From: a virus
Lineage: Duplodnaviria > Caudoviricetes
Virus record (IMG/VR): IMGVR_UViG_3300032239_000345
Location: 1 to 32,755 of that record
Strand: one strand, 5' to 3'
Length of the DNA: 32,755 nucleotides
Position numbers and translations under genes: made by a program. The notes under the pieces are model-generated. The model was not told the origin of the DNA and did not search any database. It saw only the letters and a list, made by a program, of their open reading frames with translations. This document shows positions 23,198 through 28,834 of the stretch, one piece after another (positions within the stretch are counted from its first letter, which is position 1; each line of letters opens with the position of its first letter).

Positions 23198-23659
23198 ATG
23201 AACATGAGTGTAGAACAAGCCTTAACCAAAGTATTCTGTAGCAATTATGTTGCCTACCACAAAAGCCACGCGGCACATGTCAACATAGTGGGCAGAAATT
23301 TTGGCTCAGATCACAAGCTATTAGAGAAGGTTTACACTGATTTAGAGGCTGAAATTGACACAATTGGCGAACTTTTACGCACAATTGACGCCTATTTTCC
23401 ACTGACACTAGCTGACACTATGGCGGGCAGTGATATCCCTGATGACCTCTTGCCAGACTTCAATGATGGTTTGGATTACATTCAACAGGTCTATGATGAC
23501 CTTGAAAAGTTAATTGAAGTTTATCTTGAATTGGAAGATGAAACACAAAACGAACGTGGCTATAATCATCTAGCCAACTACGCACAGGATCGTGTTCGTG
23601 CATTGAAAAAACACAATTGGATGTTGGGTGCAACGCTCAACGGTCGCATGACATTTTAA
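23198..23659 (+). CDS. dps: Dps / DNA-binding ferritin-like protein
   Basis: H..H.N..G.NF...H.LLE..Y.......D.IGE..R signature with ferroxidase His, His, Asp, Glu; C-terminal KH.WML. Confidence 0.9.
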   Translation: MNMSVEQALTKVFCSNYVAYHKSHAAHVNIVGRNFGSDHKLLEKVYTDLEAEIDTIGELLRTIDAYFPLTLADTMAGSDIPDDLLPDFNDGLDYIQQVYDDLEKLIEVYLELEDETQNERGYNHLANYAQDRVRALKKHNWMLGATLNGRMTF

Positions 23660-23968: not shown

Positions 23969-23997
23969 TTGACTTTTGCCGTGTATTCCAGTATCAT
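23969..23997 (+). promoter_or_regulatory. Sigma70-type promoter P1
   Basis: TTGACT (23969-74), 17 nt spacer, TATCAT (23992-97); no ORF follows before the terminator. Confidence 0.75.
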
Positions 23998-24003
23998 TGT
24001 TTT

Positions 24004-24215
24004 ATAACATATAAATAATGTTGTGATGGTAGTTTGTATCTCCTCAGAAAAGTCAATTAGTTTTCCATCACACTTGTATTATTCGTCATCAACATGTTTG
24101 GTTTAATATCATTCTTTTAATGACTCCATTGGTTATGCAGGCAAGGCTCTTCAATAAACAATAATACAAGTTCAAATCCCCTAATTAGTGCAATGCTAGT
24201 TAGGGGATTTTTTTT
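24004..24215 (+). ncRNA. Putative structured multi-target antisense RNA (sRNA1)
   Basis: Bounded by a promoter and a terminator; stems 24022-29/24065-72 (8 bp) and 24072-83/24160-71 (12 bp); enclosed sequences are complementary to 24267-24336 and 26003-26011. Confidence 0.75.
24174..24215 (+). terminator. Intrinsic terminator of sRNA1
   Basis: aaatcccctaattag pairs with ctagttaggggattt (one G-U), ending in an 8-T run. Confidence 0.9.
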
Positions 24216-24226
24216 GGTTTGTCTGA

Positions 24227-24255
24227 TTGACAAAGTCAATAATATCATATATACT
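24227..24255 (+). promoter_or_regulatory. Sigma70-type promoter P2 (polymerase-like gene)
   Basis: TTGACA (24227-32), 17 nt spacer, TATACT (24250-55); overlaps a CTAAATA box at 24254-60. Confidence 0.85.
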
Positions 24256-24288
24256 AAATATTAGACAGCCTTGCCGCTAACAGAAGAC

Positions 24289-24318
24289 ATGGAGACGTTT
24301 TTGAAAGAAGCTATATGA
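24289..24318 (+). CDS. Putative leader peptide (uORF) METFLKEAI
   Basis: ATG...TGA within the P2 leader, ending just before the SD (TAAGGA) of 24334; an in-frame TTG at 24301 follows GGAG. Confidence 0.35.
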   Translation: METFLKEAI

Positions 24319-24333
24319 TATTAAGGAAACATT

Positions 24334-25350
24334 TTGAATTACATACCAAATTATAACAATAAAGCATTTCGCCGTAGAGCCACAATGGCTTTACAATTCG
24401 TAAAACAATTTGTTAAACGAACTCAACCCAATTGGTTAAGCACTCGTTGGATCCATGATCCAAAGCATTTTGGACAAGCTGGAAAACCTATTAGTGAATA
24501 TCTCAAAGAACAATTGCTAATATGCACTGATCACCATTTTAATTGGCAAACTGGTAAATGCAAATACTATGTGCAAAATGTAGATGGTATCAAACAGCTT
24601 GAACAGGCACTTAATGGGCCTGTAATAAAACCAACAATTACAGCCAAATTGGAATCCCAATTGGACACTGGTGAATTTGAATATAATGATTCCAGTGACA
24701 GATTATATAACCCCTTACAGAATTTGCCTGTGTATGTTAAAAGGGATCTGTTATCTAACAAGGGCTACAACTACAATTATGATATTGTTTGCGCCGCACC
24801 TACTTTGTTGTATCAACACGCACAACGTCAAGGACTAAACAAACAACTCACGTACCTTGAATTTTACATAGCTAATAGAAGTAAAGTTCGCGATGAACTT
24901 GCTATCAAATACAAATTGGAGTTAAAACAAGTTAAGCAATTACTTACAAGTTTATTCCAAGGAGCATATCTATCTGTTAATCACACAACCAGTTGTTATC
25001 ATCTCCTAAATGGAAACTATCATTTAATTAAACAATTACAAGCAGATCCATTCTTGTTTGAACTAAGAAGTGATATCAAACAGATGTGGAAAGCAATTAC
25101 TCCTCAAATGAAACTACAACTTAATAAAAAAAGAATATGTAGTAAAGATAAAACTGCCAAATACAGAGAACTTGAACGAAATGTAATGAATGTGATTAAG
25201 AGAGAACTTCGTAGAACTAAGAACAGACATTTACTTCAACATGATGGTTGGACTAGTAAGGAGATATGTGATGTGAATATGTTAAGGAGTTATGTGAGAA
25301 GTCACACTGGGTTTGTAATAGAAATTGATTGTGAAATTTATGTCAACTAA
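24334..25350 (+). CDS. Stand-alone minimal family-A-like (TV-Pol-like) polymerase/primase domain protein
   Basis: RLYNPLQNLP (cf. GRLSS..PNLQNIP), motif A YDIVCAAP, motif B KQLLTSLFQG, YRELE, motif C LLQHDG; no exonuclease or helicase domain; TTG start with SD TAAGGA. Confidence 0.72.
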   Translation: MNYIPNYNNKAFRRRATMALQFVKQFVKRTQPNWLSTRWIHDPKHFGQAGKPISEYLKEQLLICTDHHFNWQTGKCKYYVQNVDGIKQLEQALNGPVIKPTITAKLESQLDTGEFEYNDSSDRLYNPLQNLPVYVKRDLLSNKGYNYNYDIVCAAPTLLYQHAQRQGLNKQLTYLEFYIANRSKVRDELAIKYKLELKQVKQLLTSLFQGAYLSVNHTTSCYHLLNGNYHLIKQLQADPFLFELRSDIKQMWKAITPQMKLQLNKKRICSKDKTAKYRELERNVMNVIKRELRRTKNRHLLQHDGWTSKEICDVNMLRSYVRSHTGFVIEIDCEIYVN

Positions 25351-25822: not shown

Positions 25823-25994
25823 AAAACACGCTAACCATACAGTGGAAATTCGTACAACACATTTTCATAATGGTTATTACTATATGTGTTCAGATTGCTT
25901 ACTTCATTTAGGTTGGCTTTCCAAACAAGAAGTTGCCCAAGCAAAATCCTTAGGCTTGACAAAAACAAACGATACCAGTATAATTAATAAATAA
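25797..25994 (+). CDS. Small putative zinc-binding protein
   Basis: HANH...H...CSDC...WLS; SD TAAGGAG. Confidence 0.7.
   Translation: MKKSIPPYEKHANHTVEIRTTHFHNGYYYMCSDCLLHLGWLSKQEVAQAKSLGLTKTNDTSIINK
25956..25984 (+). promoter_or_regulatory. Sigma70-type promoter P3
   Basis: Perfect TTGACA (25956-61), 17 nt spacer, TATAAT (25979-84); ATAAATA box at 25987-93. Confidence 0.9.
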
Positions 25995-26017
25995 ACTTGT
26001 TACTGAGGAGAAATGAA

Positions 26018-26449
26018 ATGAAAACTTTAACACCAAGAATTGAAAATAAAATTAAGAGAATAGTAACGTTTGTAGATATTATAAACTACTATTATGATGA
26101 ACATCCTGATGGTCTAAATGATAACAAAGAGTTTTGGGACATATTTCATGAGTATGTAAATCCATTAAGTGAGGATTGGGTCATAGATACAGAAGAAATT
26201 CTGCATGAACATTTTAGTCCTTATTTTCAAAAATATCCCTATGTGAATATAGGTACAGAACATTTAAAAAAATCTATATTGCTAGGCAAACCCTTGACCA
26301 AACCAGATGTTCCCAGTAAAAACAGAAACACTTTAAGGGCTTGGTTCAATATTAGAGATGTGATCAATGAGATTAGTGGCTATGAACCACCCAAGCGGCC
26401 TAAACCAGCCAGTGATAATCCATTTGATAATTTATTTGATAGGAATTAA
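26018..26449 (+). CDS. Hypothetical early protein; RBS complementary to sRNA1 hairpin I
   Basis: SD GAGGAG at 26005-10, ATG 26018; first gene after P3. Confidence 0.8.
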   Translation: MKTLTPRIENKIKRIVTFVDIINYYYDEHPDGLNDNKEFWDIFHEYVNPLSEDWVIDTEEILHEHFSPYFQKYPYVNIGTEHLKKSILLGKPLTKPDVPSKNRNTLRAWFNIRDVINEISGYEPPKRPKPASDNPFDNLFDRN

Positions 26450-26909: not shown

Positions 26910-27423
26910 TAAGGCGCATACGTGGCGTTGGGCAGATGTGCGTGACATCATGCCCATTGTGGCCATGGCGCAACAACAGTTTCAAACGGAAATTGATTCA
27001 ATTCTAACACCTGATCCTGCTGTCTATGCCTACAATATAGACAAGGCCATTACCACACAGAGACACACCTTGGACCAAACACAATTGTTGGTGTGTTATC
27101 AAGGTGAGAAATTAATTGCCTACACATGGATCTCACGTGGTGTTTACACTGACTACAGCAGAGATGAAATTGCTGAAGCACGTTTTCTACACATGGATCT
27201 TGACCTAAGCACACGAGTAAGAATTCAGTTGTGCCAAGAAGCATTAGATCATTGGGTCAAATGGTGCAGTAGTATAAATATACCAGTGCTGGTCAGTACC
27301 AGTATTAGGCGAGACCAACGTGCCTTTTTGCGTTTGCATGAACGCATGGGGTTTGATATAAGAGGTAGCATTGCCTACAAACGTATAAAGGAAATGAAAT
27401 GCGAGCAACAGGAACAAAATTAG
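26896..27423 (+). CDS. Second GNAT-like acetyltransferase
   Basis: WRWA...DI..I start, KLIAY.W, AFLRLHERMGF C-terminal motif. Confidence 0.65.
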   Translation: MNAIDKAHTWRWADVRDIMPIVAMAQQQFQTEIDSILTPDPAVYAYNIDKAITTQRHTLDQTQLLVCYQGEKLIAYTWISRGVYTDYSRDEIAEARFLHMDLDLSTRVRIQLCQEALDHWVKWCSSINIPVLVSTSIRRDQRAFLRLHERMGFDIRGSIAYKRIKEMKCEQQEQN

Positions 27424-27662
27424 TAATTACTAAGATTGAAGTGGAACAGAAATCAGCCAGTGGAATCATATTCACCAATCAACAAGATCCCAACCCCAGT
27501 GCCAAGATCCTAAGTGTGGGACCTTCAGTTAAGGAAAAGAATCCAGAACTTGAAGAGGGACAGACTATTACAGTGGAATGGCAACACTGTGTCAAAGTAA
27601 TTCGTCAAGGTGTGACCTATTACATTGCTGATGCACAATCAGTCTACGCCATTGAGGAATAA
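27399..27662 (+). CDS. groES: Co-chaperonin GroES/Cpn10-like protein
   Basis: 87 aa; mobile loop EQKSASGIIF, ILSVGP, G..Y.I.....V.AIE; no groEL in the genome. Confidence 0.85.
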   Translation: MRATGTKLVITKIEVEQKSASGIIFTNQQDPNPSAKILSVGPSVKEKNPELEEGQTITVEWQHCVKVIRQGVTYYIADAQSVYAIEE

Positions 27663-28218: not shown

Positions 28219-28300
28219 TGTCGCTTGTTAATGCACCATCCAAGGATGCTGTGGACACAATTTTGTGCATTTCTACCACTGGGCCAAATTGGGAGCGACA
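28219..28300 (+). promoter_or_regulatory. Putative structured 5' leader that sequesters the SD
   Basis: tgtcgctt (28219-26) pairs with gagcgaca (28293-300); aatgcac (28230-36) pairs with gtgcatt (28265-71); preceded by CTAAATA at 28208-14. Confidence 0.5.
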
Positions 28301-28834
28301 ATGAATAACTTCCGTCATACGGGCACCTTTGATTACCAGCCCATACTCAGTGAGATAGTGGCCAACCCCGCATGGAATTGGCTTAACCTAAGAAGTTATG
28401 CGGGTCATACGAGAGATATAATATTACGTTATCAAAGTGTGGAAACCAATAAAACTATCAAGGATTTCTATACCAATCCCCTTTGTGTGGATTATTTTGT
28501 GCAGAGTTATTTTCCCAAGACCATGCAGTTAATACGCAATCACGTGGGCGATAAGAGCATAGGACGCATAGTAATAGCTGAACTAACCCCTGGCCAGCAA
28601 GTGGCTCCACACATTGACGAGGGGTTTTATAGTGATAATACTGATAGGCACCACTTTGTGGTCTCTACCAACGTGGAGTGTGTGATGATGAGTGGGAATG
28701 AACACCAACACATGCCCAGAGGCACCATATGGTGGTTCAACAATCATGTTACGCATTCAGCTGACAACAAGGGCACCACTACAAGAATACATGTGATAGT
28801 GGACACGTACAAAGATGACTCAGTTAACCTCTAA
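28301..28834 (+). CDS. Aspartyl/asparaginyl beta-hydroxylase-like Fe(II)/2OG oxygenase
   Basis: L.PG..V.PHID, R.H, G.IWWFNN...HS..N.G...RIH.IVD (HxD...H triad). Confidence 0.88.
   Translation: MNNFRHTGTFDYQPILSEIVANPAWNWLNLRSYAGHTRDIILRYQSVETNKTIKDFYTNPLCVDYFVQSYFPKTMQLIRNHVGDKSIGRIVIAELTPGQQVAPHIDEGFYSDNTDRHHFVVSTNVECVMMSGNEHQHMPRGTIWWFNNHVTHSADNKGTTTRIHVIVDTYKDDSVNL

Follow-up and report, generated by a model that had tools for sequence, protein, structure and literature searches.

A conserved, predicted two-armed antisense RNA as a likely restraint on early genes in a group of small phages

Directly upstream of a polymerase-like phage gene lies what, judged by comparison of related genomes, is a real and conserved feature, predicted to give rise to an RNA that is absent from Rfam and has repression as its expected role. 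In its predicted form the RNA consists of two arms that can be exchanged: arm 2 spans the leader of whichever gene opens the early operon, and arm 1 probably spans another early ribosome-binding site. Pairing is kept in relatives though both partner sequences change, so that we are likely to be dealing with a family of RNAs that act as brakes on the early genes of phages. The window, by which we mean the whole 32,755-nt stretch of DNA that was analysed, is a complete virus record (IMG/VR IMGVR_UViG_3300032239_000345) with direct terminal repeats, and its predicted terminase, SU10-type portal, capsid and adaptor genes mark it as a small podovirus. The features of the locus are listed in Table 1.

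Table 1. Positions of the RNA locus, its predicted targets and associated promoters in the window
Feature	Position	Strand	Remarks
P1, sigma-70-like promoter TTGACT-17-TATCAT	23969-23997	+	10/12; RNA start would be near 24004
TAAATA box within TATAAATA (24010-24017)	24012-24017	+	T4-late-promoter type
Predicted RNA, ~195 nt: arm 1, arm 2, terminator	24023-24217	+	
Arm 1: 7-bp stem (24023-29/24065-71), open loop	24023-24071	+	Unpaired probability 0.71
Arm 2: 12-bp closing stem (24072-83/24160-71), 76-nt antisense loop (24084-24159), six blocks	24072-24171	+	
Intrinsic terminator (24174-24210 and T run)	24174-24217	+	Loop 24190-24194 is the recurrent GCAAT motif
P2, dual promoter TTGACA-17-TATACT (24227-24255) and overlapping TAAATA (24255-24260)	24227-24260	+	Sigma-70 part 11/12
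Target 1 leader: 5' seed 24267-24275, upstream ORF 24289-24318, Shine-Dalgarno ~24323-24327, TTG start	24262-24336	+	
Polymerase-like gene: 338-aa minimal family-A-like polymerase resembling TVpol	24334-25350	+	Predicted primase-polymerase
P3, second dual promoter: perfect TTGACA-17-TATAAT and TAAATA (25988-25993)	25956-25993	+	
Probable target 2: ribosome-binding site 26003-26011 and gene 26018-26449	26003-26449	+	
Further TAAATA boxes before late genes	2082, 4553, 7329, 16859, 18752, 23172, 27275, 28209, 29808, 30201 (2082-30206)	+	

A first-pass annotation, made from the letters alone, had proposed that an ORF-free structured region between P1 and P2 gives rise to a same-strand RNA complementary to the leader of the polymerase-like gene. 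P1, P2, the terminator and the 12-bp stem were all located where it had placed them, and the longest plus-strand ORF inside the RNA is one of 27 aa with no Shine-Dalgarno sequence. The six block pairs that it had listed were likewise found, antiparallel and in order: 24140-48 with 24267-75, 24124-29 with 24289-94, 24112-20 with 24301-09 (one G-U), 24103-12 with 24315-24, 24094-99 with 24327-32 and 24090-92 with the TTG start codon, so that arm 2 is complementary to the leader from its 5' end through the Shine-Dalgarno sequence to the start. What it had overlooked were the TAAATA boxes at 24012 and 24255 and the second arm at 24023-24071. The predicted RNA folds with a z-score of -4.58 (0/200 shuffles as good); the body of the RNA without its terminator has a z-score of just -0.9, and the arm-2 blocks are 0.56-0.70 unpaired in the free RNA. 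Two short complementarities are recorded in passing: the P2 -35 box forms half of a palindrome, TTGAC-AAA-GTCAA (24227-24239), possibly an operator, for which conservation was not seen, and 24048-24056 is complementary to the P1 -35 box.

Comparison with shuffled controls, a check proposed alongside the original pairing, bore it out. The loop-leader duplex has an energy of -49.3 kcal/mol, against -24.0±4.3 for shuffled loops and -25.2±4.1 for shuffled leaders, and was better than all 1000 shuffles in each case. When the costs of unfolding are included, net binding of the full RNA to the leader is -26.3, compared with -7.5±3.1 in shuffles (0/200). The leader is the best non-self site among 6536 windows of the genome, with a runner-up at -46.2, so that the window genome alone gives a modest margin. 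A scan of viral contigs with the seed pattern gave 140 matches that we attribute to chance, since none has TAAATA ahead of a leader block. The view that the RNA belongs to no named family was upheld in Rfam 15.0, where neither the window nor 20 related loci gave a match (best sub-threshold score 28.7 bits, against a threshold of 65).

The stronger evidence comes from relatives. Searching for loci with a single protein gave nothing and an alignment was required; 109 loci were then fetched, 92 of them with a usable start. A terminator followed by TAAATA was present upstream of the polymerase in 41/93 loci (window included), and 32 loci with an additional upstream TAAATA and a callable first gene yielded 23 non-redundant RNA-leader units; many of the loci left out are short or have the polymerase inside an operon. 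When all leaders were compared with all RNAs, a leader's own RNA ranked first of 23 in 14/23 units, and the summed own-pair energy was -683.5 as against -479.6±21.7 on permutation (0/100,000). Reversed RNAs of the same composition ranked first in 0/23. The pairing thus covaries across relatives, as would be expected of the same-strand antisense RNA first envisaged. In the other nine units the adjacent leader does not rank first (L058 and L082 are 17th, L088 15th), and five extra units ranked 1, 4, 6, 14 (a 5'-cut unit) and 41 of 41. Separately, L025, L058 and L063 have long, structured polymerase leaders to which no upstream RNA corresponds and which may be under a different, cis-acting control.

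Selecting genomes by capsid instead of polymerase gave weaker agreement. Such an RNA element occurs in 13/18 fetched genomes; G042 was dropped as resembling a small gene, leaving 12, of which eight have a next leader, and these ranked 1, 1, 2, 7, 7, 8, 9 and 15 of 31 (permutation 139/100,000, p ~0.001). As the RNA persists where Prim-Pol and helicase genes replace the polymerase, it belongs to the early-operon slot and not to one gene. The original proposal that it is directed at a replication gene therefore holds for the window and needs widening for the family, in which the target is the leader of the first early-operon gene, whichever gene that is, even without a polymerase. A plain multiple alignment of nine units left the promoter, GCAA loop, terminator and seed as the sole alignable parts, with both the TTGCCG seed and the terminator-loop motif invariant; GCAA(T/C)G or GCAATT was found in 22/40 RNAs. 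A further suggestion, that a leader peptide might serve in the manner of tap, fared less well: the window does have a nine-codon ORF with a covered AUG, but such ORFs are not enriched across units (9/19 compared with 8.5 expected).

In arm 1, the nine nucleotides 24039-24047 are fully complementary to the ribosome-binding site behind P3 (26003-26011). This site ranks 1/26 in one ranking and 2/23 in another; net binding is just -8.4, and for that reason the target is probable, not secure. Both dual-promoter leaders of the window rank 1/26, the nine late-only leaders ranking 4-23; L056 repeats this pattern, and L006 ranks third. A generic scan of short start regions for second targets was noisy, giving first ranks in 1/4 dual-promoter, 5/27 TAAATA-led and 7/134 other genes. 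The gene behind P3 encodes a 143-aa helical protein that matches no known family; its C-terminal tail, F-[DE]-x-L-F, is conserved. The idea that it might be a mini-sigma found no support (best Z 4.9, a weak match; no Foldseek match with E <0.001). Hydrophobic-acidic tails of the F-x-[DN]-L-F-like type were seen, as a raw count, on 21 proteins in 20/42 genomes; most are unrelated early proteins and two are methylase-like. Such tails resemble those that bind sliding clamps.

Comparison of the loci with one another shows that each arm can evidently be swapped independently. A contig from run X3, from a near-identical strain, matches the window at 23992-24085 and 24175-24214, differs from it in the letters of the arm-2 loop and diverges again in P2; leader and polymerase differ as well, the polymerase pieces being far less alike. 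This swap is seen in one contig of 244 nt at a depth of 3.2. Conversely, L056 and L102 have arm 2 and leader in common and differ in arm 1. The position of the RNA also varies. In G009 it lies on the opposite strand, and the leader that opens the polymerase operon, 3 kb away, still ranks 1/26; the best target in G022 is found 1.4 kb upstream of the RNA (rank 1/26); distant or opposite-strand placement in these two relatives favours action in trans. The two arms of the G026 RNA have separate partners: for arm 2 the top-ranked one is the leader downstream, and arm 1 is perfectly complementary over 12 nt to a divergent gene (rank 1/35). The latter finding did not recur in G028, G027 and G001, where ranks were 6-17 of 40.

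The promoters of the locus place the RNA in a wider scheme. TAAATA occurs 16 times on the plus strand of the window and 0 times on the minus strand, with boxes ahead of the RNA, of the two early operons and of numerous virion genes. It lay 10-90 nt before an ORF start in 135/322 cases in 24 polymerase-selected genomes and 197/454 in 18 capsid-selected ones, compared with 5-8% for the controls TTAATA, TAAAAT and TAATAA and 10-21% for hexamers overlapping the box. Across 122 sites the consensus is (A/C)TAAATA, A/T-rich downstream and with no -35 signal. A T4 late promoter consists of an 8-bp box placed one helical turn ahead of the start, and a -35 element is lacking (PMC2988020); the sites described here share with such promoters a TATAAATA-like box around the TAAATA core, the A/T-rich downstream sequence, the lack of a -35 element and the location ahead of virion genes. 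As in RB49 and S-PM2, early and late promoters overlap; the latter cyanophage uses NATAAATA (PMC2984593). With the spacing known from T4, transcription would start at G24023, where stem 1 begins, five bases after TAAATA. In 38/40 units the first G falls at offset 3-5 after the box, although the units were found via a TAAATA box before the first stem, such that both TAAATA conservation and the G offset at the RNA start are partly built in. A second, shorter TAAATA-led RNA with a terminator was noted before a small gene by the terminase region in three genomes (G002:7619, G005:28769 and G009:3733).

Sigma-70 promoters are distributed differently. A score of >=9 was reached by 5/40 RNAs in the scan window, or six if P1 of the window, 2 nt outside the scan, is counted, and by 16/32 target promoters compared with 3/82 structural-gene TAAATA sites. 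T4-like phages encode gp55, which reads their late promoters together with gp33 and gp45, whereas the present 25-40-kb genomes yielded no sigma-family protein: Sigma70_r2 gave no match above cut-off in the window or 20 relatives, and no sigma family was found among 58 cluster representatives, a search with general sigma-family profiles that a diverged sigma factor could have escaped. With no sigma factor in evidence, these phages may depend on a T4-like helper. T4-type late boxes head virion genes in podovirus-type and siphovirus-type relatives alike (window and 41 genomes), again with no sigma found. The polymerase itself was considered as the reader of TAAATA and rejected, because the motif persists in relatives without it, just 4/30 capsid-selected records having the polymerase.

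The protein encoded downstream of P2 was described in the first-pass annotation as polymerase-like, and this holds, because its structure model (pLDDT 91.7) has a PolA/TVpol fold, matching PolA chains, which fill the PDB match list, and virophage helicase/primase/polymerase proteins. The top named viral structural matches are the Qinghai Lake virophage and Zamilon replication proteins, at 13-19% identity. A database search yielded 40 matches including the protein itself (search range 185-592 aa); most of these homologues keep the YDI and HDG motifs, and the catalytic aspartates D150 and D304 are invariant in 38 sequences. Most homologues begin M-x-Y-x-P-N in register with the TTG at 24334, which supports that start as originally called. 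No Pfam or PHROG family was matched, and there was no match in GenBank phages or plasmids, nor by sequence in the PDB. TVpol has a predicted primase role (PMC4642659), and by analogy the 338-aa protein would have one too. Like the TVpol of virophages and Polinton-like viruses it has a PolA-type palm and fingers; unlike that of virophages it stands alone, with no fused SF3 helicase (the ORF ends at 25350) and no helicase gene recognised in the window.

Among the 38 window proteins scanned there was no match to integrase, repressor, helicase or sigma families. The group is common, given that a capsid search alone returned 551 related stretches. In three capsid-selected genomes the early operon consists of Prim-Pol and helicase in place of the polymerase, and the replication module in the early slot is exchanged among the close capsid relatives G026, G028, G030, G039, G047 and G048, the alternatives being TVpol-like, a longer distant homologue, Prim-Pol with helicase, and an unannotated 236+187-aa pair. 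Elsewhere in the window are a Dps/ferritin-like gene behind a TAAATA box (23198-23659; family in 26/42 genomes), GroES (27399-27662) and an Asp/Asn hydroxylase-like gene (28265-28834). At L349:2384-2705 there is an RNA resembling that of the window, which shares its 9-nt seed and has an 11-bp block of its own; the 5.8-kb contig is binned as uncultured Legionella and is probably a mis-binned phage piece. An AT-rich integrated element in Janthinobacterium sp. SUN073 (L351:3511-8664) encodes a tyrosine integrase and a polymerase homologue of 30% identity. Its layout of TAAATA, short RNA, terminator, TAAATA and leader is that of the window; RNA-leader pairing is absent there (rank 41/41).

These results are best read as pointing to a brake that would act on the translation of replication and other early genes, lysogeny repression being a separate reading. 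The locus would make a two-armed antisense RNA, transcribed from the TAAATA promoter of T4 late type (and, for this clade, from a sigma-70 promoter as well) and ending at its terminator, which would act in trans on early-message leaders, the adjoining PolA/TVpol-like replication gene being the main message blocked. Open loops would seed on the leader's 5' GC-rich block and then zip over the ribosome-binding site, and arm 1 would act alike at the second dual-promoter gene. Having both promoter types, the early operons would keep firing in the late phase, and it is then that the RNA would serve as a brake: we think it fairly probable that this discrete RNA, by zipping over the Shine-Dalgarno sequence and start, caps replication and early translation when the TAAATA promoters fire. 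Replication-protein output would in this way be limited once late transcription starts, and P1 would add a basal brake in this clade.

The idea set out initially was that the RNA stands in for a protein repressor. In such a scheme a constitutive sigma-70 RNA from P1 would keep replication low in a plasmid-like state and block kin with the same leader, and arm swaps would create immunity groups. The scan found neither a repressor nor an integrase family among the window's proteins, P1 matches at 10/12 positions here and the promoter at its position at 12/12 in G026 and G028, which are close relatives, the arm on the X3 contig has changed along with the leader, and P4 CI RNA acts in such a manner (PMC4825925). 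Against this, a sigma-70 promoter scoring >=9 heads just 6/40 RNAs, no partition or integration genes were recognised among the 38 window proteins, and neither bacterial genome contigs nor the plasmid and phage record sets yielded a close relative. Because TAAATA is common to the family and a P1-type promoter is not, repression in lysogeny becomes one of two timings for the RNA, and dormancy or immunity as its main role strikes us as unlikely.

The remaining alternatives concern where and how the complementarity matters. A read-through transcript (24023-24345) forms the same helix in cis (-87.8 kcal/mol) and the RNA sits directly upstream of its target in most units, so that pairing could in principle matter only in read-through from upstream late genes, hiding the ribosome-binding site; we regard this as distinctly improbable given that a strong terminator separates RNA and leader, the antisense loop has a closing stem that itself covaries and pairing is kept in G009, G022 and G026 despite opposite-strand or downstream placement. 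Alternatively, the main targets might be helper or host messages with self-pairing secondary, or pairing might lead to transcription termination or RNA decay in place of ribosome exclusion. Arms with GCCAT or GTCAT plus an anti-Shine-Dalgarno sequence have a top-2 own-genome target in just 1/18 cases, leaving 17/18 without one; SviR regulates both satellite and helper messages (10.1101/2022.04.08.487710), and CI RNA acts by termination (PMC4825925). Both window arms do have own-genome partners, however, the blocks cover the Shine-Dalgarno sequence and start codon, and the target-1 leader has no terminator-like site on the plus strand, making either variant very unlikely. Antiparallel, in-order blocks resemble a decayed inverted repeat, and the margin over the next site in the genome is just 3 kcal/mol; yet a relic of duplication, or a DNA-level signal such as an origin or protein-binding inverted repeat with no RNA function, is hardly credible when pairing is kept with unrelated sequences in 14/23 units, survives a move to the other strand, uses G-U pairs and is confined to loops between promoter box and terminator.

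Several known RNAs offer parallels for the proposed brake. P1/P7 C4 and N15 CA RNAs are same-strand structured RNAs that pair with their own replication or early operon via short complementarities. The predicted RNA is of the P4 CI/P1 C4 type in being on the same strand as its target and having partial complementarity, here computed. P4 CI RNA (seqA/seqC) is cut out of the transcript that it targets and makes transcription stop early (PMC4825925); in contrast, the RNA here ends at a terminator of its own and its target is served by a separate promoter, arguing against excision from the target transcript, and differs further in having ~70 nt of pairing in six blocks over the Shine-Dalgarno sequence and start, exchangeable arms and no Rfam match. 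CopA of plasmid R1 controls its replication initiator at translation via CopT (PMC5415839), but is cis-encoded on the opposite strand, fully complementary and dependent on translational coupling, whereas here six interrupted blocks lie on the same strand. SviR of the Vibrio cholerae PLE, a trans-acting RNA that lowers translation of several targets and belongs to a mobile element tied to a lytic helper phage, is the closest multi-target parallel (10.1101/2022.04.08.487710), with the difference that helper dependence is something we infer in the present case. SviR is conserved across PLEs, which are integrated satellites using helper structural parts, whereas the arms described here change with their targets and the window phages encode head, tail and terminase. 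No description of such an RNA or phage group was found in the literature, a search that did not cover the supplements of PMC10690425 (~ten thousand candidate viral RNAs), which may list target-less members; nor was any full-virion phage found that depends on T4-like transcription machinery alone.

The swappable arms and the late promoters without a recognisable sigma factor are of added interest. It is possible, and we put it forward tentatively, that a large group of small podo- and siphoviruses, with complete virion modules and without a late sigma factor, borrow late transcription from T4-like phages infecting the same cell, and that a helper-switched modular RNA silences their own early genes, perhaps helper genes as well, and sets immunity or incompatibility groups without a protein repressor. 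If TAAATA is read by a helper sigma factor, these would be full-virion phages parasitising just the T4-like transcription machinery. It is very rare for a regulatory RNA of an uncultured phage to be linked to its target; in the present case sequence supplies the target, the seed and the covariation, and the family would offer an RNA-target code with natural cognate and non-cognate pairs.
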